From: Acidobacteriota bacterium
Lineage (GTDB): Bacteria > Acidobacteriota > Thermoanaerobaculia > Multivoradales > UBA5704
NCBI GenBank assembly: GCA_040005235.1
Contig: JBDTZG010000047.1
Span: forward strand, 1 to 41,915
DNA length: 41,915 nt
Direction: 5' to 3'
Below the pieces are notes generated by a model. The model had not been told where the DNA came from. It ran no database searches and saw nothing but the letters and a program-made list of their open reading frames with translations. Positions 553 to 41,385 of the stretch are shown in pieces; position 1 is the stretch's first letter; each line of letters begins with the position of its first letter. Position numbers and translations under genes: made by a program.

Positions 553-1364
553 AGGCTCCCGTTCGAGCGATCGAGAAGGTGTTCGCGACCTGCCGCCGCG
601 AAAAGCGCGCGGCGTTCATTCCGTTCCTGATGGCGGGCGATCCCAGCCTGGCGATCACCGGCGAGCTGATCGAGGCGCTGGCCCGCGGAGGGGCGGACAT
701 CATCGAACTCGGCCTGCCGTTTTCCGATCCGATCGCCGACGGTCCCGTAAACCAACGTGCGGCAAATCGGGCGCTGGCGGCCGGCACCACCCTTTCCGCC
801 GTGCTGGAAACGGTCGCCAGGCACCGTCGGCGGGTAGGGGTACCGATCGTCCTCTTCACCTATTTCAACCCGCTCCACGCCCGTGGGCTCGAACGCTTCG
901 CCGAGCAGGCCGCGGGTTCCGGCGTCGATGGCGTGCTCTGCGTCGATCTCCCGCCGGAAGAGGGGGAGCGCGAGCTGGTGCCGATTCTCGACTCCCAGGG
1001 AATCGACTCGATCTACCTGCTCGCGCCGACCAGCACCAAGGAGCGCATCCGCCGCGCGGCGAAGGCGTCTTCCGGATTTCTCTACTACGTGTCGCGCACG
1101 GGGGTGACCGGCGAGCAGAAGGCTCTGGCCGGAGATCTCGCGGACGAGATCCGGCGCATGAAGAAAAAGCTGCCGCTGCCGCTGGCGGTCGGTTTCGGCA
1201 TTTCCACCCCGGAGCAGGTGCGGGAGGTGGGCGAGATCGCCGACGGCGTGGTGGTCGGGAGCGCCCTGGTTCGGCTGGTCGAAGAGTACGCGGAAGATCC
1301 CGATCTGGCCGAACGCCTCGAAGCGCGCGTCCGCGAGCTTTCCGCACCGCTCCGGCGCCGGTAG
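549..1364 (+). CDS. trpA: Tryptophan synthase alpha chain
   Basis: ATG at 549 overlaps the trpB stop (ATGA). Motifs [50 protein letters not shown]. Confidence 0.97.
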
Positions 1365-18731: not shown

Positions 18732-19261
18732 CCCGTGCACAGCTTGAGCACTTGATTCGTGCCGCCGCCGTGATCGCCGACGAAGATCAGATCGTCGTCA
18801 TTGGCAGCCAGGCGATCCTCGGTCAATTTCCGAACGCGCCCGAAGCAATGCGGCTCTCGATCGAGGCCGACCTTTTTCCACTCCAGAACCCCGAGCGCGC
18901 CGACATCATCGACGGAAGCATCGGTGAGCTTTCGCCCTTTCACCAGAGCTTCGGCTATTACGCTCACGGGGTTAGCGAGAAGACGGCGGTTCTACCCGAA
19001 GGCTGGCGAGATCGCCTCGTAGTGGTGCAGAACGAAAATACGCGGGGTGCGAAGGGGCTCTGTCTCGAAGTTCACGATCTTCTCGTGGCCAAGGCGATCG
19101 CCGGGCGAGAAAAAGATCTAGATTTCCTGGCCGAAGCCGCACGTCATGGAATGGCGGATCGGGAGACCCTTTTTCGGCGCCTGGAAAAGGTGGATGTAGA
19201 GCCTTTAATCCGGGAGGCGTGCCGTGCAGCCGTGGCGAGGGCTTTTAGTGCAGTGGTTTGA
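18728..19261 (+). CDS. DUF6036-like nucleotidyltransferase
   Basis: GTG at 18728; VVIGSQAIL...SIEAD (Pol-beta-type G-S...DxD variant), DGSIGELSPFHQSFGYYA, LPEGWRDRL, HDLLVAKAIAGREKD. Confidence 0.8.
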   Translation: MTRAQLEHLIRAAAVIADEDQIVVIGSQAILGQFPNAPEAMRLSIEADLFPLQNPERADIIDGSIGELSPFHQSFGYYAHGVSEKTAVLPEGWRDRLVVVQNENTRGAKGLCLEVHDLLVAKAIAGREKDLDFLAEAARHGMADRETLFRRLEKVDVEPLIREACRAAVARAFSAVV

Positions 19262-19319
19262 GTAGGAATGCCAGGACAAGCCGTGGGCGTGGAGCGCCAA
19301 AGGGACAGCCTTTGAACCG

Positions 19320-19865
19320 TTACGACTTCTTCGCGCGGGGAGCAGCTGCCCGGCTCTTGGCCGTCGGGGCCTTCTTCGCTTTCGGAGCGGTGCTCTTCGC
19401 GGCGACCTCGGCGATAGGTTCCGCCCGCTCCGGCTTCGGCGCGCTGCCGAGGGCGGCGAGCGCTTCGGTCATCGCGGCCCGGACGTGGCGTTCGAGGTCG
19501 GCGGGATCGATCAGCAGCGGCGCGGGCGGGGCAGCGATTGGCGGCACCGGAACGCCGGCTTCGTCGAGCGCGTCGATGTAGCGGTTGAGCACCGGACCTT
19601 CGGCGATGCCGCGGTCGCCCGGCTTGGGAAACAGGGTACGAAAGAATTCGCCGGGGGGAATGTGGATTGCTTCGAGCACGCGCAGGATGTGCTCGTAACG
19701 CATCGCGACGCGGCCGGTCAGCAGCTGGCTGGTTTGGCCGCGGCAGTTGTCGAGCAGCTCGTCGATCTCCTGCCGCGACTTGTTGGAGAGGTGGATCAGC
19801 GCGGCGAGCAGCTTGCGGGCGCGGTGAATTTCTCCTTCGCTCATGGTGGTCGGAGCATACTCCAT
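19320..19865 (-). CDS. Putative XRE-like helix-turn-helix regulator with Lys/Ala/Pro-rich tail
   Basis: SRQEIDELL-NCRGQTSQLLTGRVAMRYEHILRVLEAIHIPPGEFF fits an XRE-type HTH pattern; tail KSTAPKAKKAPTAKSRAAAPRAKKS. Confidence 0.7.
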   Translation of the reverse strand: MEYAPTTMSEGEIHRARKLLAALIHLSNKSRQEIDELLDNCRGQTSQLLTGRVAMRYEHILRVLEAIHIPPGEFFRTLFPKPGDRGIAEGPVLNRYIDALDEAGVPVPPIAAPPAPLLIDPADLERHVRAAMTEALAALGSAPKPERAEPIAEVAAKSTAPKAKKAPTAKSRAAAPRAKKS

Positions 19866-19920
19866 CGGTTGAATCCTGGCGTTTCCTCACGGACCGTGAA
19901 TTGAATCTACGATTCGACGT

Positions 19921-19957
19921 TCGGGCCAGAGGCGACGCCCCGTCGCCTCTGGCCCGA
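19921..19957. terminator. Perfect 17-bp stem-loop downstream of the 20373-19969 gene
   Basis: TCGGGCCAGAGGCGACG-CCC-CGTCGCCTCTGGCCCGA. No U-tract on the minus strand, so it may be a stability or processing element. Confidence 0.65.
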
Positions 19958-19968
19958 TCTGCAAAAGG

Positions 19969-20373
19969 TTAGGCTTCGGGGGCGGCGCCCTCCTTTGCAG
20001 CCGCCTTGGTGACCGCCGCCTTCGCGCCGTCGCGGACGCGGTTGGCCGCCTTCTTCTTGGTCCGTGCCTGCGGCCGGATGCCGAACTGGATCAGCTTCTC
20101 GTTGTCGAAGCCGAAGTGAGCCTGAAGAATCGCCCCCAGCTCACGGCGGATTCGGGCACCTTCGGCGGTCAGCTCGCGACGCTGCGCCGTCGTTTCCCGC
20201 AATCGACCGAGCAGCTGTTCCTCCTCGTCGTCCAACTGCTTGGCGCGCACGAGGAGGCCGTCCAACGCCGTATGTTTGTCTCTGCCCTGCGGCACTTCTT
20301 CCAGCACGGGGGTGAGGTTTGCGACCAGAAGCTCCATGCGGCGGATGTTCTCGGCGAACGTGGCGGTGGTCAT
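19969..20373 (-). CDS. Hypothetical coiled-coil protein with basic C-terminal tail
   Basis: GGAGG RBS; long amphipathic helices; FGFDNEKLIQFGIRP followed by RTKKKAANR. Confidence 0.82.
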   Translation of the reverse strand: MTTATFAENIRRMELLVANLTPVLEEVPQGRDKHTALDGLLVRAKQLDDEEEQLLGRLRETTAQRRELTAEGARIRRELGAILQAHFGFDNEKLIQFGIRPQARTKKKAANRVRDGAKAAVTKAAAKEGAAPEA

Positions 20374-20825
20374 TCTTTACAGCCTCCAGGGGAGCAGCCG
20401 ACCGGTTCGTTCCGGTCGAGCGGGTGGTGGGGATAGAGGGGAAATGTCTTGCGGAGCTTTCCCGCGACGTTCGGGTGGCTTCCCCGCCGCTCGAGGAACG
20501 CGCCCGAGCCGTCGGGGAAGGTTCCCGACAGGGCCGGGAAGCTTCCCGAACACTTGGGGAGGCCTCCCGAGTCGTCGGGGAAGCCGCCCGAGCGGTTGGG
20601 GAGGCCGCCCGAGCCGCTGGGGAGGCCGCCCGAGCCGCTGGGGAAGGTTCCCGAGCCGTCGGGGAGGCCGCCCCAAGCGTTCGGGAAGGCTCCCCCGGCG
20701 ACGGGGAAGCTTCCCCGCGCGTTCGGGCAGCCGCCCGAGGCATTCGGGTGCCATCCCGAGGTGCCCGGGTGGCTTCCCCAGGCGTTCGGGCGGGCTTTCG
20801 AGGCGCCGGACGCACGAGACTTCAC
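20370..20825 (-). CDS. Putative Pro/Gly heptad-repeat protein (P-x-x-S-G-x-F/L) encoded by the 21-bp array
   Basis: GTG overlaps the upstream TGA (GTGA) and its TGA overlaps the downstream ATG (ATGA). Pro occurs in 15/16 and Gly in 16/16 units, with synonymous variation (CCC/CCG, GGA/GGC). Confidence 0.55.
   Translation of the reverse strand: MKSRASGASKARPNAWGSHPGTSGWHPNASGGCPNARGSFPVAGGAFPNAWGGLPDGSGTFPSGSGGLPSGSGGLPNRSGGFPDDSGGLPKCSGSFPALSGTFPDGSGAFLERRGSHPNVAGKLRKTFPLYPHHPLDRNEPVGCSPGGCKE
20461..20796. repeat. Degenerate tandem array of 16 x 21 bp
   Basis: Units such as CCCGAGCCGTCGGGGAAGGTT and CCCGAGCCGCTGGGGAGGCCG. CCC at unit positions 1-3 and GGG at 13-15 are nearly invariant; no indels and no spacers. 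Confidence 0.95.
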
Positions 20826-21505
20826 TCTCGGGTGCCCTCCCCATCGTCTTCTTCGGGGAACTGCTCGATCGTCGGGATCTCGGCGGCGGGCAACTCCGGG
20901 ATCGGCCGCTCGGACCGATCGAAGCGGGTGGCGACGGTGGTGCCGGTTCGGACCATGTGGCCGTACTCGGCGAGCGCGGCGGTCAGACCGGGGCTCGCGC
21001 CAGCCGTTTGGATCGCACGGATCAACATTCCAAGCGCTGCGCGCAGGCCCACAGGTAGATCGGAAAGTAGGCGGATCTCGGCGCGCCGTGCGATCTCGGC
21101 CAGCGTCGCGTCGTCGCGGCCTAGCGCCGCCAGGGCGGCCCGTTCCAGGCCGACCGCCGCGGCGTCGATAGGAGATCCTGCCCGCACGAACGACCGCTCG
21201 GCTTGGTCGAGCCGCTCGTCGGCCGTCGCGACGTCTCCCATGACATAGGCGGAACGCGCCGCGGTAAGCGTAGTCTCGCCCGCCACCCAGTCGGCAAACC
21301 CGACCGCACCGGCCGCCGGCCGTCGAATCCGGTCGAGGCGGTCTCCGAGCTCGAGGTCGAGCGATCGATCGAGAGGGAGGACCAGCTCGTCGTCTTCGCG
21401 CGCCTTCTCTACTCGTTCCAGGCCGACCGGAGAATCCGGCGCGGGAAGGCGTTCGTTACCAGGATCGTGGCCAGGGCAATTTTGGTCAACGTATCGTTGA
21501 TTCAT
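20822..21505 (-). CDS. Hypothetical helical protein resembling the C-terminal part of the 22124-23452 protein
   Basis: ATG 21505 (start uncertain). ERSFVRAGSPIDAAAVGLERAAL aligns by eye with RRRFAARNLPFHVALVTLDYGAL; acidic tail. Confidence 0.65.
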   Translation of the reverse strand: MNQRYVDQNCPGHDPGNERLPAPDSPVGLERVEKAREDDELVLPLDRSLDLELGDRLDRIRRPAAGAVGFADWVAGETTLTAARSAYVMGDVATADERLDQAERSFVRAGSPIDAAAVGLERAALAALGRDDATLAEIARRAEIRLLSDLPVGLRAALGMLIRAIQTAGASPGLTAALAEYGHMVRTGTTVATRFDRSERPIPELPAAEIPTIEQFPEEDDGEGTRE

Positions 21506-21755
21506 GTGACAGAGGCTAGATGCCGGATCTTGCCCTGTCAAGCCTTTTCTCTACCGATCGTTGATTATGGGGAGGAAGCGTCGAGTAGCGAATGGAGCCG
21601 TGCGGATCACGCCTCCTCGGAAGCGGGCATCTCCCGCGCGACGCGGGCCAACTCCTGCGATGCTTCGCCTCAGCTGGCAACGCCCGAGCGTTGCCCCCGC
21701 GGGCGCGGGGGCCATCCCGGCACCCGCTCGACCCGCGGCACCGGAGGAAGAACCT

Positions 21756-22016
21756 ATGTCTCGCGCCGTCGGTCGCTGCCTAGTTTTCGCCGCCGTTTTG
21801 CTGCTCGCCCCGCCCCTCGCCGCCTCGGCCCGCCCGATTGAGGGGACGCCTGCGCCGAGGTTCCAGCTGGAGCAGGTCTGGACCCGCGTTCTGGAGTGGT
21901 TCGGTACGGTTGTTCCAAAAGCTGTCTGGGGGGAGCAGGGGACGGATGTCGATCCCTACGGTCGGCCGGTTCCTGTGCCCTTGCAAACGGACGGAGGATC
22001 GGCACCACTCTTGTGA
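21756..22016 (+). CDS. 86-aa secreted peptide (putative signalling or RiPP-like precursor)
   Basis: GGAGGAAG RBS; Sec signal MSRAVGRCLVFAAVLLLAPPLAASA; amphipathic LEQVWTRVLEWF; WGEQGTDVDPYG. Confidence 0.8.
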   Translation: MSRAVGRCLVFAAVLLLAPPLAASARPIEGTPAPRFQLEQVWTRVLEWFGTVVPKAVWGEQGTDVDPYGRPVPVPLQTDGGSAPLL

Positions 22017-22027
22017 TTTTCCAGCTC

Positions 22028-22063
22028 GTGGAGCGCTGCGGTCCTTTTTCCTAGGCGCTCCAC
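22028..22063 (+). other. Stem-loop between the peptide gene and the TPR-type gene
   Basis: GTGGAGCGC (22028-22036) pairs with GCGCTCCAC (22055-22063). Confidence 0.45.
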
Positions 22064-22123
22064 AAGACGCTCTGTGAGATAATTAGGTTCGCTATCGATC
22101 CTTCTACTCTTTGAGGTTCCGGG

Positions 22124-23452
22124 ATGAGCGAGACACGTTGCCTCGTGCCGAGTAATTGGGAAGCGTTCCTGCTCGGAAGGCTGTCCATGGAGGAGAGCAA
22201 AGTGCTGGTACGGCACCTGCTGCGCGGATGTGCCGATTGTTCCGACCAGCTTGCTGCCTTAAGCGCCCCACTCTTTGGACATGCCGATCCGCGTCCGCTG
22301 AGCCCCGAAACCTACGATTTTCCGGTCGAGCTAGGAATTCGGGGTGCCCTCGATTCGAGCAAAGGGCTGCGCGCCGCCCGCCGGATTGCACAGTCGGAAG
22401 TGTGGACGATCGCCGAGCTGGGCGAGGTACCGGCAGCGGCGCCTGCGGAGATCGAAGGACCGGATCTTTGGTGGGAGCAGGCGGCCGCGTGGCTCGCCCT
22501 TGCACGGCATGAGCGCCACCAGGATCCGGAGACCGCCCTGATCGCGGCTGCAATCGCCGAGGCGTGTTCCGTAAAGCTCCCCGGACGGGACTATCCGCAG
22601 GGTTCGCTTGGCGACTTGCGCTCTGAGATCTGGGCGGAGATCGCCAATGCGAAGCGATTGCTCGGACAATTCGTAGAAGCAGAAGGTGCCTTCGGCTGCG
22701 CGCTCGAATGCTGGCGGGCTGGCAGCCTGTCTGTCAGGCTTCTCCTCCGCTTTGCGGACATGCTGGCCCGCACCAAGCTCGACAGCCGTCAGTTCGACGA
22801 CGCATCGCGAATTCTTTCGACCTTGGAGCTTTTCTATCTGGGGAAAGGCTGGTTTGCCGCCGCAGGCCAGATCAAGATGGCACTCGCAAGCGTCGCAGGC
22901 TACCGTGGCGATAACACCCGCGCCGTGGTGCTCCTGCTCGAAGCCCTACCCCTCCTTGCGACCGGCAGCGATCCAAAGGCGCCTCTTTTCGCACTGCACA
23001 ACATGATGGGCCGCATGGTGGACCTTGGTCGCTTCACCTTCGCCGAGGAGATGCTGCACACGCTTCGTCCCCACCTGGAGCCTCTTTTTGGCGAGACCGA
23101 CCGCTTAAAGCTCTCGTGGGTCGAAGGGAAGATCGCCGCGGGCCTTGAACGCTGGTCGCTCGCGGAGCATGCGTTCCGTTCTCTGCGCCGTCGCTTCGCA
23201 GCTCGGAACCTCCCGTTTCACGTCGCCCTGGTCACCCTCGACTATGGCGCGCTTCTCCTTCGCTTGGGCCGCACCCGCGAACTGCGTCCTTTGATCGACG
23301 AGATGATCGCCACCTTCCTCGGCCTCGGCATTCAGCGCGAAGCGCTCGCTTCGGTTCTGCTGCTGCAAAACGCCCTCGCCGCCGAGCGCGCCACACAGGC
23401 CCTACTCGAAGCCGCCGTCCGGGAGATCCAAGCGCTTGAAGGGCGGGGGTAG
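22124..23452 (+). CDS. TPR-like all-helical protein with N-terminal anti-sigma-type zinc-finger-like motif
   Basis: EAFLLGRLSMEESKVLVRHLLRGCADC (H-x4-C-x2-C); TPR-like helices WAEIANAKRLLGQFVEAEGAF, LHNMMGRMVDLGRFTFAEEML, WVEGKIAAGLERWSLAEHAF. No signal peptide. Confidence 0.8.
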   Translation: MSETRCLVPSNWEAFLLGRLSMEESKVLVRHLLRGCADCSDQLAALSAPLFGHADPRPLSPETYDFPVELGIRGALDSSKGLRAARRIAQSEVWTIAELGEVPAAAPAEIEGPDLWWEQAAAWLALARHERHQDPETALIAAAIAEACSVKLPGRDYPQGSLGDLRSEIWAEIANAKRLLGQFVEAEGAFGCALECWRAGSLSVRLLLRFADMLARTKLDSRQFDDASRILSTLELFYLGKGWFAAAGQIKMALASVAGYRGDNTRAVVLLLEALPLLATGSDPKAPLFALHNMMGRMVDLGRFTFAEEMLHTLRPHLEPLFGETDRLKLSWVEGKIAAGLERWSLAEHAFRSLRRRFAARNLPFHVALVTLDYGALLLRLGRTRELRPLIDEMIATFLGLGIQREALASVLLLQNALAAERATQALLEAAVREIQALEGRG

Positions 23453-38316: not shown

Positions 38317-41300
38317 TCAACTCCTCAGGCGCGCGACTAAGGTGAGACTAAACTCTACAGCTTGTTTCCAGGTCATATTCGTCGAATCCAGCGCGGCGAG
38401 ACGCTTGTCGATCTTCAGGCTTTCCTGGGCGAACAAGAGAGCCAGAGGGCGATGGCCTTGATCTTCGTGAAATAGAGCAATTCGCGTGTGACCGAAGGCA
38501 AGGTCTCGTTGCCAAACGGCGTAGGAGGGATTGCTGGACGCCAAGCTGTGGATCACGACAAGCGACTCCAAGTAGGCGGCGAGGGCGCCGGTTAGATTGC
38601 CTTGGTCCTTGAGGATGTCGCCAAGCTTTGCATGGCTTACGCTAAGATCTCGCTGCCAACAGGCATTCGTGGGGTCGGCCTTCGAAAGCTGTTTTATGAT
38701 CGCCAATGCCTCTTGGCAGACTGTCATGGCTCCTGCCCTATCTCCTTGGGCGCGCAGTACCTCACCCACTTCGGCGTGGCTAACGCTCAGATCTCGTTGC
38801 CAACCCCTGTTCGAGGGATCTGTCGCAACGAGTCGTTGCATGACATCCAGTGCTTCTTGGCAGACGTCCAGAGCCTCGGCTACATTGCCTTGGGAGAGCA
38901 GTTCCTTTCCCACTCTAGCTTGGCTAACGCTCATTTCGCGCTGCCAGGCCTTGTTCGAAAGATCAGCTGCCGCCAATCTTTGGATAACCAATAGCGACTC
39001 ACGGTAAGACGCCAATGCTCCAGACAGATCGTATTGTTTCCGTAATACTTCGCCCACCTTTGTGAAACTGATGCTCAAGTCGCGCTGCCAAGCCGAGTTC
39101 AACGGATGAGTCGCAGCCAGCCTTTGCCTTACCCCCATCGCCTCCTTATATGAGGCAAGAGCCCCGACCAGATCGCCTTGGTCCTGGAGCACGTCGCCAC
39201 GCCGGTCGAGCAGCGAAGTTCGCTCTCGGAGCCAGACGGGCTTTTTGGCCTTTCTGTTCGGAAAGCGATCCAAGCAGCCGGCCACCGCGTTCAGAGCGAG
39301 GTTGGCAAGGGCCAATCGACCCAAATCTGCCAGGCGAGAGCAAGCGTCGTAAGCCAAATACCTGGCGAGCGGAATCCAAAGTTTCCGACCTTCGTCCGAT
39401 CGCAACAAGGCAGCGGCATGCTCTAAGGTGTGGGCTAGGACGATCGGCTCAGCTTCTCCGGTGTCAGTTGCCAATCCTGCGGAGAGGTGCCCCCAAAGCC
39501 AATGCGCCAAGCGTTTGTGAACGGCTAAGTCGGAGACAACCTCTTGCCGGGCGAAGCGATACCCGAGCACGTGTGTGAACTGCCAATGGTCCGTCCTTTC
39601 AGAGCGCCGCAACAGACTGCGCTGCACCAGGGACTGGAGAACCTCGCGAGCTGTTCCTTCGCCTGCAGGAGGCTCTAAGGCCGCTACGATGGCCGCGAGC
39701 GGGAAAGGTGCGCGAGCGAGGAGGCCGGCCGCCGCAAGTGCTTGGCGTGCGGGGCCTGCCAGCCCGCGGACGCTACGATCGAACAGGTGCTTCAGTGTGT
39801 GATCGGCCTGGGTAGGGTCGCTAAGGTTGGGCAGTGGTTTCGCCAACCAATCACGAACCAACCGCCCGGCGTCTTCGTCGTCGCGCGCGAGAAGGCTGCC
39901 GGCCCAAGTGAGCGCGAGAGGATGGCCCTCGAGCAGCTCCAACACGCAGTCCCGTTGTGCGCCGGTTACCCGTCCTAACGTTAGGGAGTCGAGCAACTTC
40001 GCCGCAGCCTCGGGTTGCAGAGCCTCCTTTAACTCAACGCTTTCAGCGGGGATCGCCTGTGTGCTCAGCCGGGTAAGAAGTAGCCGACGGTTCTGGGGTG
40101 AAAAGACGCTGAGCAATTTCCGGAGGTCTGAGCGGCCGTTCTTCCCGTCGGCCTCTTCGCCGCCTTCGATTACGATCAGAACGCGACGCGCCTGACAGGC
40201 CTCAATGGCGCGTTCCTCGGCAGGCGCTCGCTCCATAAGCTCGACTCCGCCCAGCTTGTTGGCGAGAGAGTTCCAGGCCGGTTCCATTTGGCCACGGAAG
40301 GTGTAGAGGTCGAGAAACACCACACCATTGGGAAACGGGCTACGGTCGAGTGAAGCTGCCGTTTCGCCGATAACCGCGCGGACCGCTTCGGCCGCCAAAG
40401 CGGTCTTGCCTAGGCCTGCAGGGCCTACGACGGCACTATTCTTCCCTGCGCGCAGTCGAGCTATGAGTTTTGTTAACTCCGCCGAGCGGCCAAAAAAAGT
40501 TTCTGCGGCGGGAGGCAGCTCGTGCGGAATGCGGTGGCAGGCCCCGTCGCCGGGCCTGATAAAGCTGGGAGGCGGCGCGGCGCGAGATGCCAGGACATGG
40601 CGCCGCAGCAGATCGCGCGCTGCGCCGCAGACCTGGACGTCAGGATCGCGAGGCTTGGCGATCGAGAGGTGGTTCTCATCCAGCCCGACGGGATCGGCGC
40701 CGACTCCTGGATGAGCGGAAGTCGGGTTAACGATTGACAGCACGCCGCCTACATTTCGCTGCTCGTAGTAGGTGACGGTTTCGATCTGAAGGTCCTCGGC
40801 GTGGTTGCGATACCAGTCGAAAAGGTCGCGTAGGTGGGCGTCGTGGGCGCGCAGATCTTCGAGGCTGACTGTCGCGCGGAAGACGGTGCGAAATGCGTTC
40901 GCTAGTGAGGCCAGCGTGGCTCCGGAATGGGGAGTGGCGAGGAACAGTACCGCGCGAGTATTGCGGGCTACCTGCTGTCGCCGCGCATCCTTTGAGTCAA
41001 CGGCCTTACGCAGGATTTGCTTGGCCAGCAGTCCTCCCAAGCTGTGGCAGGTGAACATCATCGGGCGCTCTCCGAGGCCGCGCTGCACCATCAGGTCGAG
41101 CACCTGCCCGGCACGGTCGGGGAGCGACATGCTGTGCCCGGCGTCGCCCTGACGCTCGGAAAGACACCCGAAGACCCGGGCCCATCGAGTCGGGCTAGCT
41201 GCGTAGCCGAGGGACCAAACGCCGATTTCTGGGAACTCCTTACCGAGCCAGTGAGGCCAGGAGCTTGAGGCGTCCTTGCCGTGGCGCCAAGTGGAGAACG

Positions 41301-41385
41301 CATCGCCGCCGAGGCCGTGGACGAAGATCACGTCGGCTTTCCGCTCGGTGTTTACACAGCCGGAGATCGGGTGCAGAGTGCTCAA
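38317..41385 (-). CDS. NLR-like STAND protein: alpha/beta hydrolase effector, P-loop NTPase and TPR repeats
   Basis: VIFVHGLGG, CHSLGGL, FLATPHSG, NHLSIAK; FFGRSAEL, Walker A GPAGLGKT, LLLTR, LEGHPLAL; six 48-aa repeats of WQRDLSVS type. TTG start. Confidence 0.9.
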   Translation of the reverse strand: MSTLHPISGCVNTERKADVIFVHGLGGDAFSTWRHGKDASSSWPHWLGKEFPEIGVWSLGYAASPTRWARVFGCLSERQGDAGHSMSLPDRAGQVLDLMVQRGLGERPMMFTCHSLGGLLAKQILRKAVDSKDARRQQVARNTRAVLFLATPHSGATLASLANAFRTVFRATVSLEDLRAHDAHLRDLFDWYRNHAEDLQIETVTYYEQRNVGGVLSIVNPTSAHPGVGADPVGLDENHLSIAKPRDPDVQVCGAARDLLRRHVLASRAAPPPSFIRPGDGACHRIPHELPPAAETFFGRSAELTKLIARLRAGKNSAVVGPAGLGKTALAAEAVRAVIGETAASLDRSPFPNGVVFLDLYTFRGQMEPAWNSLANKLGGVELMERAPAEERAIEACQARRVLIVIEGGEEADGKNGRSDLRKLLSVFSPQNRRLLLTRLSTQAIPAESVELKEALQPEAAAKLLDSLTLGRVTGAQRDCVLELLEGHPLALTWAGSLLARDDEDAGRLVRDWLAKPLPNLSDPTQADHTLKHLFDRSVRGLAGPARQALAAAGLLARAPFPLAAIVAALEPPAGEGTAREVLQSLVQRSLLRRSERTDHWQFTHVLGYRFARQEVVSDLAVHKRLAHWLWGHLSAGLATDTGEAEPIVLAHTLEHAAALLRSDEGRKLWIPLARYLAYDACSRLADLGRLALANLALNAVAGCLDRFPNRKAKKPVWLRERTSLLDRRGDVLQDQGDLVGALASYKEAMGVRQRLAATHPLNSAWQRDLSISFTKVGEVLRKQYDLSGALASYRESLLVIQRLAAADLSNKAWQREMSVSQARVGKELLSQGNVAEALDVCQEALDVMQRLVATDPSNRGWQRDLSVSHAEVGEVLRAQGDRAGAMTVCQEALAIIKQLSKADPTNACWQRDLSVSHAKLGDILKDQGNLTGALAAYLESLVVIHSLASSNPSYAVWQRDLAFGHTRIALFHEDQGHRPLALLFAQESLKIDKRLAALDSTNMTWKQAVEFSLTLVARLRS

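Follow-up and report, generated by a model that had tools for sequence, protein, structure and literature searches.

A 21-bp tandem array upstream of a gene family in Thermoanaerobaculia, a candidate array of helically phased protein-binding sites

Directly upstream of a gene for a 134-amino-acid (aa) protein in an Acidobacteriota bacterium of the Thermoanaerobaculia lies a tandem array of 21-bp units that is open in all six reading frames. Is this array a gene in its own right, or does it act as DNA or RNA in front of the gene that follows it? We addressed this question in a stretch of 41,915 nt (contig JBDTZG010000047.1 of GenBank assembly GCA_040005235.1), here called the window, which is contig C139 of a 6.2-Mb, 140-contig source genome (G000). 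A preliminary description of the window had proposed that the array hides a Pro/Gly heptad-repeat gene, coupled to both of its neighbors by overlapping start and stop codons. Comparison with related loci argues against such a gene and suggests that the units may be binding sites for a protein.

Conservation and coding potential of the array

The array (Table 1) spans 357 bp, and its successive units abut without spacers. Read on the minus strand, the unit carries two cores, TCGGG at unit positions 4 to 8 and CCC at positions 15 to 17, within which GGG (positions 6 to 8) and CCC are the invariant letters; the rest of the unit is variable. Tandem Repeats Finder (TRF) reported periods of 21, 42, and 63 for positions 20486-20790. 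The pattern GGG-N6-CCC-N9-GGG-N6-CCC matched 12 times in the window, each time within the array, versus no match in 100 dinucleotide-preserving shuffles. No array variants were seen in the contigs of four DNA runs, among which only two, identical, contigs matched; these probably represent the source of the window.

The signs that had suggested a gene are present as claimed. Open reading frames (ORFs) cross the array in all six frames (20141..20815, 20370..20825, and 20377..20844 on the minus strand; 20240..21058, 20319..21248, and 20449..21171 on the plus strand). The 151-codon ORF that runs from 20825 to 20370 starts on the upstream stop (GTGA), with a GGAGG 10 nt before its GTG, and stops on the downstream start (ATGA). 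Its Gly and Pro codons are nearly invariant with synonymous variation (GG(A/C) in 16 of 17 units and CC(C/G) in 15 of 17), and among the six frames it has the highest codon-usage score (log-likelihood 15.7, ∼0.10 per codon). No frame of the unit contains a stop codon, however, so that an open frame at the array is no evidence of coding, and such openness is expected from composition. The GGAGG before the GTG lies inside the coding sequence of the upstream gene, and the array begins 18 nt past the stop of that gene. Stops are found in the AT-richer sequence surrounding the ribosome-binding site, and this alone brings the ends of two minus-strand frames out of three to within 6 nt of the 134-aa ATG.

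Is any of these frames maintained by selection? We compared the window with L071, a metagenome contig carrying an ortholog of the 134-aa gene (88% identical protein) in identical gene order. The two arrays aligned without gaps and with all 17 units in register, and 115 of 355 positions differed. In the frame of the 151-codon ORF, change rates at the first, second, and third codon positions were 0.36, 0.30, and 0.31 (chi-square, P = 0.54), with 17 synonymous and 59 non-synonymous codon changes; across all six array frames the ratio of synonymous to non-synonymous changes ran from 13:61 to 22:62. No frame showed an excess of third-position or synonymous changes, whereas the three flanking genes showed both, with rates by codon position of 0.075/0.06/0.31 (P = 1e-9), 0.10/0.10/0.27, and 0.20/0.16/0.30. 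What distinguished array positions from one another was the core: GGG and CCC together changed at 6 of 102 positions versus 109 of 253 elsewhere in the array (binomial, P = 3e-17). The non-core letters diverged at a rate of 0.43, higher than the third-position rates of the flanking genes (0.27 to 0.31). GGG and CCC straddle codon boundaries in the frame of the 151-codon ORF. Among the units, third codon positions are the most conserved on average (1.32 bits versus 1.16 and 0.99 for the other two), and the third positions 6 and 15 are invariant even though their residues vary (S/W/R/G/A and F/L/H/C, respectively).

Since the cores were kept and a coding signature was lacking in the comparison with L071, the array is best described as a conserved nucleotide motif repeated 17 times. 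Cores that stay in register in all 17 units while other positions diverge by 43% require selection at the locus. The array cores are under purifying selection in place, and the array has stayed there unit for unit since the lineages of the window and L071 split. We consider it very probable that the array is non-coding.

The frame and its coupling fared no better at other loci. With the single 134-aa protein as query, the related loci were two in genomes and one in a metagenome, and some ORF bridges the array in each of three orthologous loci. These bridging ORFs lie in different frames, however. In L071, 4-nt and 1-nt indels in the spacer bring the heptad frame to a stop codon 44 nt short of the 134-aa ATG. 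The ortholog in another genome, G005 (locus L014; 134-aa protein 74% identical), has an array of 19 units of which one is 20 bp and one is 22 bp long, so that the frame leaves the heptad for three units; beyond them, no stop separates the heptad frame from the 134-aa gene, to which the ORF is fused. The claimed double coupling does not survive these comparisons: the ATGA overlap is lost in both L071 and G005, and the GTGA is kept as part of the end of the upstream gene (the junction letters are identical in L071). Because a Pterin_4a-like gene stands between the upstream gene and the array in G005, it is the 134-aa gene, not the upstream one, that the array accompanies. The ortholog locus of a further genome, G003 (L015, C25:74062-77391), has a deletion: the 239-aa gene and the array are gone, together with part of a tetratricopeptide-repeat (TPR) gene and the initial 24 codons of the 134-aa gene.

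Frame-shifting units also occur in arrays that are related but not orthologous. A sister array on contig C39 of the source genome has a 22-bp unit, as a result of which a single ORF switches from ASGGCPx to LGRLPxR, and the closest paralog of the 134-aa gene (C111, ∼70% identical) is preceded by an array of GGAAGGCC(A/C)TTCC palindromes with a spacing, by manual count, of 20 to 23 bp. Many related arrays have a 20- or 22-bp period. The preliminary description had itself named frameshifts and a loss of coupling in homologous arrays as evidence against coding, and both are found.

Could the 151-codon ORF nevertheless be translated, either as a Pro/Gly heptad-repeat protein or as a spacer linking expression of the 134-aa gene to that of the upstream gene? 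The overlaps, the codon-usage score, and the bridging ORFs described above are the points in its favor. Against them stand, besides the conservation pattern and the shifted frames, the separate GGAGG of the 134-aa gene itself (paralogs have AAGGAG or GGAGG at the equivalent place), the lack of any Pfam match (E values of ≤0.1) to the three array translations searched, and the fact that 9 of the 12 TRF arrays linked to the 134-aa family (see below) have no ORF call over them. We give translation of this ORF hardly any credence, and a selected peptide encoded by it is largely refuted; a translated spacer, for which an open frame would suffice, is opposed less strictly. In line with the expectation that gene callers would miscall the array, our crude codon-usage caller produced spurious proteins from such blocks.

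Arrays upstream of the 134-aa gene family and across the genome

If the array is not a gene, with what is it associated? Arrays with a period of 20 to 22 bp recur upstream of the 134-aa family across genera. In the source genome, 17 of the 27 paralogs showed a periodicity of 20 to 22 bp or its multiples (40 to 44 bp) within 600 bp upstream, at a threshold above the 95th percentile of 300 random windows. A TRF array was located upstream of 12 of the 27 paralogs versus 92 of 4788 other predicted genes (odds ratio 41, P = 7e-14) and downstream of none of the 27 versus 135 of the 4788. Of 18 loci in further genomes of this taxonomic family, several of these loci belonging to other genera, 11 had 20-, 21-, or 22-bp arrays upstream, 3 had arrays downstream, and 4 had none. 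The check suggested in the preliminary description, for arrays upstream of homologs of 19969-20373, was thus positive. Closely related paralogs carry related array units.

The 134-aa family appears, as far as we searched, to be confined to one taxonomic family of Thermoanaerobaculia. We found 7 to 34 matches in 22 of 24 other genomes of that taxonomic family; neither 16 genomes of other taxonomic families of the order nor 300 additional genomes of the phylum had any. The family profile retrieved 1050 cluster representatives from 1.84 billion proteins; among the matches listed, nearly all were 110 to 165 aa long and aligned from their first residues. The structure predicted for the 134-aa protein consists of a long helical hairpin and a basic helix (predicted local distance difference test [pLDDT], 87.8). 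The ESM Atlas returned only unnamed Acidobacteriota clusters for this protein, and neither it nor its 181-aa and 239-aa neighbors matched a Pfam, NCBIfam, or PHROGs family. In the literature that we searched, neither these arrays nor the 134-aa protein family is described.

Arrays of similar period are found throughout the source genome, where the TRF output had 212 rows of period 21 and 71 of period 20. When the rows were merged, with a minimum length of 55 bp and a period of 19 to 23 bp or a multiple of it, they gave 156 arrays, or 154 (26.6 kb) after removal of two CRISPR arrays. Their base periods were 21 (83 arrays), 20 (37 arrays), 42 (16 arrays), and 41 (5 arrays). Because this set of 20, 21, 41, and 42 recurs across unrelated unit sequences, it points to 10.4 bp per helical turn, as helical phasing of bound proteins would give. 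The units fell into about 20 multicopy families (up to 12 arrays each, at unrelated loci) and 81 singletons. By the gene positions of our crude in-house codon-usage caller, 143 of the 154 arrays are intergenic or under a small ORF only, and 11 are inside large genes. Twenty of the 154 are no more than 150 bp from a contig end, a zone that makes up 0.67% of the genome (C4:1-331, C78:1-191, C127:1-239, and C132:106100-106204 are among them). The arrays thus break the assembly, so that counts of them and their measured lengths are too low. In 400 kb sampled from G009, a member of the taxonomic family, 8 loci had periods of 19 to 23 or 40 to 44 bp versus 3 in the outgroup G031, totals that pool coding and non-coding loci and are too small for a conclusion.

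A second array in the window, with a 21-bp (or 42-bp) period and an unrelated unit of the CCGCGCACCGCTGGGCAGGCC type, is located at the contig end (41550-41840). It lies upstream, at a distance of 165 bp, of a divergently oriented gene (38317-41385, minus strand) for a 1022-aa hydrolase/NTPase/TPR protein. The two CRISPR arrays (G000 C45:5-504 and C68:66895-68055) have a period of 65 to 66 bp and the repeat GTCGCCCCCTGCGCGGGGGCGTGGATTGAAAC.

Possible functions of the array and its neighbors

What might the array do upstream of the 134-aa gene? We propose that it may constitute 17 imperfectly palindromic sites, TCGGG-N6-CCC-N, one per 21 bp or two helical turns, immediately before the family gene in its control or leader region. 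Each unit would be a putative binding site for a sequence-specific, probably dimeric DNA-binding protein, with half-sites about one turn apart, the spacing that a helix-turn-helix dimer needs. Proteins on successive units would then lie on one face of the helix, bind cooperatively, and set the expression of the downstream operon. The likeliest binders would be products of the operon itself, namely, the 181-aa XRE-like protein, the 134-aa protein, or both, which would amount to autoregulation. Taken as a whole, a non-coding array of phased protein-binding sites in the control region of the operon is a proposal that we judge as apt to hold as to fail. A DNA role for the 21-bp period, with sites phased by two helical turns, had been offered as an alternative in the preliminary description. 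The evidence favors that role; that the array acts as DNA and not as RNA, that a protein binds it, and that the binders are its basic-tailed neighbors is what we infer.

Several observations weigh against this proposal. The first group concerns transcription and folding. The array is probably transcribed: it lies between two genes on the same strand, and we found no terminator-like site after the upstream gene. Positions 19200-22200 of the window contained no strict sigma-70 pattern. Upstream of the array, the C111 paralog and its ortholog both have a sigma-70-like promoter (TTGACA-N17-TAGTCT/TAATCT); of 10 loci scanned for the strict form of the pattern, C111 was the only one with a match at that position. 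The minus strand of 20374-20825 has a predicted fold of -266.7 kcal/mol (z score, -6.2), and 0 of 100 shuffles folded as well. A separate stem-loop lies between the array and the ribosome-binding site in the window, and a similar one is found 15 to 25 nt before the ribosome-binding site in many 134-aa paralogs, with differing stem sequences (folding of 24 paralog leaders, mean z score of -1.24 versus -0.20 for 148 control genes). These features would fit a transcribed intercistronic or 5' leader in which self-complementary units fold into long duplex-like hairpins, and such an RNA element could act on mRNA stability, on processing, on translation of the 134-aa gene, or by titrating an RNA-binding protein.

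How well does an RNA element account for the units themselves? The predicted fold runs via long-range pairing between units and not as one hairpin per unit. Among 34 units (17 each from the window and L071), the inner positions do not covary, as had been noted for the window (covariation score, 0.175 versus 0.175 when shuffled), and 72.3% of cells in a per-unit hairpin were paired versus 73.6% in shuffles. A-C mismatches are as common as G-U pairs in the array units, and in 7 of the 12 family-linked arrays folding of the antisense strand equals or exceeds that of the sense strand. The sense strand is C-rich in 9 of these 12 and T-rich in 9 of 12, a bias that is not decisive. Some family-linked arrays have no palindrome, and a perfect inverted repeat of at least 5 was found in just 29% of 125 units versus 13% of shuffled units. 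A search of Rfam gave four matches (E values of 0.26 to 0.92), all far below the gathering scores. A narrow period of 20 to 22 bp in unrelated units has no obvious rationale at the RNA level. The tight period in unrelated units and the lack of covariation, of a G-U excess, and of a sense-strand advantage argue for DNA over RNA, and an RNA-level element seems to us unlikely.

The second group of observations concerns where arrays occur. By our crude gene calls, arrays between convergent genes (36) outnumber those between divergent genes (21). Sister arrays with the TCGGG-N6-CCC unit are in non-orthologous places in G000 (C39:4470-4880), G005 (C251:16814-17165), and G007 (C753:1218-1548). Their contexts are unrelated: one is upstream of a secreted hydrolase gene, one is between convergent genes, and one is just downstream of a gene with HNH-like motifs. 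This pattern would fit the dispersal of a repeat better than promoter control. Is the array, then, a dispersed minisatellite resembling repetitive extragenic palindromic (REP) sequences or miniature inverted-repeat transposable elements (MITEs), without host function at most sites and accumulating where it is tolerated? In that case, co-duplication or a preference in insertion would account for its frequent placement upstream of the 134-aa family, and related paralogs do carry related units, as co-duplication would give. The largely intergenic distribution of the 154 arrays, the unit families with up to 12 copies at unrelated loci, and the downstream excess around ordinary genes (135 versus 92) also agree with dispersal.

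Other data are difficult to reconcile with a purely dispersing repeat. The cores of all 17 units were kept, and the arrays of the 134-aa family lie upstream and not downstream of its genes in the source genome and upstream at 11 of the 18 loci in other genomes. The flanks of arrays of the same unit family are non-homologous, and no leader or tail with inverted ends was found: BLASTN with the 1.2-kb flanks of six unit families gave no match between the window array and the C39 array and five short matches (29 to 161 bp) in all. The genome has 11 matches to PF01797 (Y1 transposase), 5 of them strong, and the strong ones are not flanked by array words (1.5-kb flanks; at most five twelve-letter words in common with any array). 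A dispersing-repeat component is likely for the array class as a whole, given the non-orthologous sister arrays and the convergent-gene excess, and the window array itself is under selection in place. We regard dispersal as an improbable explanation for the array studied here.

Arrays of the GTGGCTTCAGCGAATTTCTCG type (5 loci, on C35, C74, C54, C7, and C24) have homologous flanking ORFs. Those on C35 (2888-3123 and 3587-3805) lie ∼500 bp from a weak Y1-transposase-like match, an exception to the negative result with flanking words. Unlike the other unit families, this one may be part of a larger repeated element.

The last group of points that count against phased binding sites concerns the candidate binders. 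The 134-aa protein has no recognizable DNA-binding fold by three kinds of search: Foldseek gave no match in the PDB at E values of ≤0.001, a wide VIA-align search against structures gave only generic helical-hairpin matches (Z ≤ 6.9), and the family profile found nothing below an E value of 0.029 among PDB sequences. The helix-turn-helix gene is directly downstream of only 4 of the 27 paralogs and upstream of one more, on C20. Most paralog loci lack it, which rules it out as a common reader for every array.

The proposal of phased binding sites can be extended from this locus to the genome. The arrays and the 134-aa family might together form a lineage-specific, genome-wide array-reading system in which each paralog reads its own type of 20- to 22-bp unit, either alone or with XRE-like or DCoH-like partners. 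The array upstream of a paralog would set the level of that paralog, and sister arrays would mark other loci for regulation or nucleoid organization, which would give dozens of orthogonal protein-array pairs within one cell. We put this extension forward as speculative and consider it doubtful.

Table 1. Features of the array locus and of pterin-4a-carbinolamine dehydratase genes at related loci
Feature	Location	Strand	Remarks
Tandem array	20448..20804	minus	17 in-register head-to-tail 21-bp units; consensus GCCTCGGGAGGCCTCCCCAAC
134-aa protein gene	19969..20373	minus	Predicted long helical hairpin, then basic tail; 27 copies in genome
GGAGG ribosome-binding site of 134-aa gene	20383..20387	minus	9 nt before ATG; the gene's own translation signal
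Stem-loop	20399..20418	minus	7 pairs, 6-nt loop; between array and ribosome-binding site; same stem in ortholog L071
Junction of array and upstream gene	20805..20825	minus	Upstream stop TGA (20824-20822) overlapped by GTG (20825-20823) of 151-codon ORF
Upstream gene	20822..21541	minus	∼227 to 239 aa (start uncertain); single copy in genome; abuts array in window
181-aa protein gene	19320..19865	minus	N-terminal lambda-repressor/XRE-like helix-turn-helix (residues ∼10 to 78), then basic Ala/Lys/Pro tail
Pterin-4a-carbinolamine dehydratase genes	G000 C52:8150-8506, C10:20614-20961, C123:12258-12557, C69:23440-23844; L014 ∼650-1025		

The 181-aa protein, encoded two genes downstream of the array, has a predicted DNA-binding domain. 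In a model of moderate confidence (pLDDT, 66.9 overall and ∼85 in the domain), its N-terminal domain resembles C.BclI, C.Esp1396I, and lambda cI, with target-normalized TM-scores of 0.76 to 0.80 over 66 to 76 columns and Foldseek E values of 0.1 to 1.5. The synteny of its gene is kept in L014 and L071, and paralogs of it are found downstream of a 134-aa family gene on C52, C132, and C67, sometimes with a gene for a 170- to 194-aa protein in between. At 4 paralog loci and in the G005 ortholog, a Pterin_4a (DCoH-like) gene immediately precedes the array or the 134-aa family gene. Eukaryotic DCoH binds a helical dimerization domain of a transcription factor. Paralogous proteins of 370 to 490 aa, some with an N-terminal helix-turn-helix and TPR repeats, recur near 134-aa family loci (window 22124-23452; G000 C10, C20, and C8).

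These results bear first on annotation, as blocks that are open in six frames yield spurious low-complexity Pro/Gly or Arg/Pro "proteins" from gene callers. They also describe one uncultured taxonomic family of Thermoanaerobaculia with about 150 arrays per genome, their period tied to the DNA helical repeat, and with a family of small helical proteins whose genes are preferentially preceded by arrays. If the 134-aa family does read the arrays, it would provide a natural set of many parallel protein-DNA recognition pairs and a testable case of helical phasing that shapes repeat evolution.

Comparison with known systems

Do the arrays correspond to a repeat class that has already been described? 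REP sequences and bacterial interspersed mosaic elements (BIMEs) are described as short, extragenic, partly palindromic repeats in multiple copies, often at gene ends and sometimes clustered (PMC3733652, PMC2613905). The arrays differ from these in being strictly head-to-tail with a fixed period of 20 to 22 bp and in that most units have no good palindrome. We rejected this class on the absence of alternating orientation and of array words around the strong Y1 transposase genes. Nearest among the published dispersed arrays that we encountered are the BrickBuilt repeats of Porphyromonas gingivalis, reported to be MITE-borne tandem repeats of ∼23 nt without spacers, always intergenic and in multiple copies, with possible effects on neighboring transcription and with a leader and a tail, bearing inverted-repeat ends, shared among copies (PMC4596501). 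In contrast, the flanks of our arrays are non-homologous, their unit families are many, and they are linked to a gene family; the BLASTN comparison of 1.2-kb flanks, which revealed no common leader or tail segments with terminal inverted repeats, led us to reject a MITE-borne minisatellite. CRISPR was rejected because the units abut without spacers and the true CRISPR arrays of this genome have a much longer period, of 65 to 66 bp.

Sponge RNAs of the CsrB/RsmZ type are ∼350 nt long and have some 18 short repeats able to bind many copies of one protein. The array is comparable in size and in repeat number, but it lacks their GGA-in-loop design, an Rfam match, covariation, and evidence for a promoter and terminator of its own. 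With no Rfam match at the gathering score, we also rejected membership in a known structured RNA family.

XRE-type repressors and the controller (C) proteins of restriction-modification systems act as dimers and tetramers on palindromes located upstream of the genes that encode them. The resemblance of the 181-aa domain to C.BclI, C.Esp1396I, and lambda cI and the half-sites about one turn apart are points of likeness to these operators. The array differs from them in having 17 sites versus their 2 to 3 and a palindrome that is imperfect in this lineage (the right arm is CCCCA, not CCCGA), and the 181-aa protein differs in its long basic tail.

The iterons and tandem operators of plasmids and phages are head-to-tail repeats of ∼17 to 22 bp, about two turns apart, beside the gene of the protein that reads them. 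The array is like them in its conserved core with free spacers and in a period, 21 bp, near two turns. Plasmid replication iterons in the strict sense were rejected, as no adjacent Rep family was recognized among the three neighboring proteins, and searches of Pfam, NCBIfam, and PHROGs recognized no Rep or partition gene among these neighbors, a rejection based on protein families, with no search for origin features such as DnaA boxes. The arrays are set apart from iterons by their chromosomal location, by their number (about 150 per genome, with dozens of unit sequences), and by their link to a 27-member family of helical proteins.

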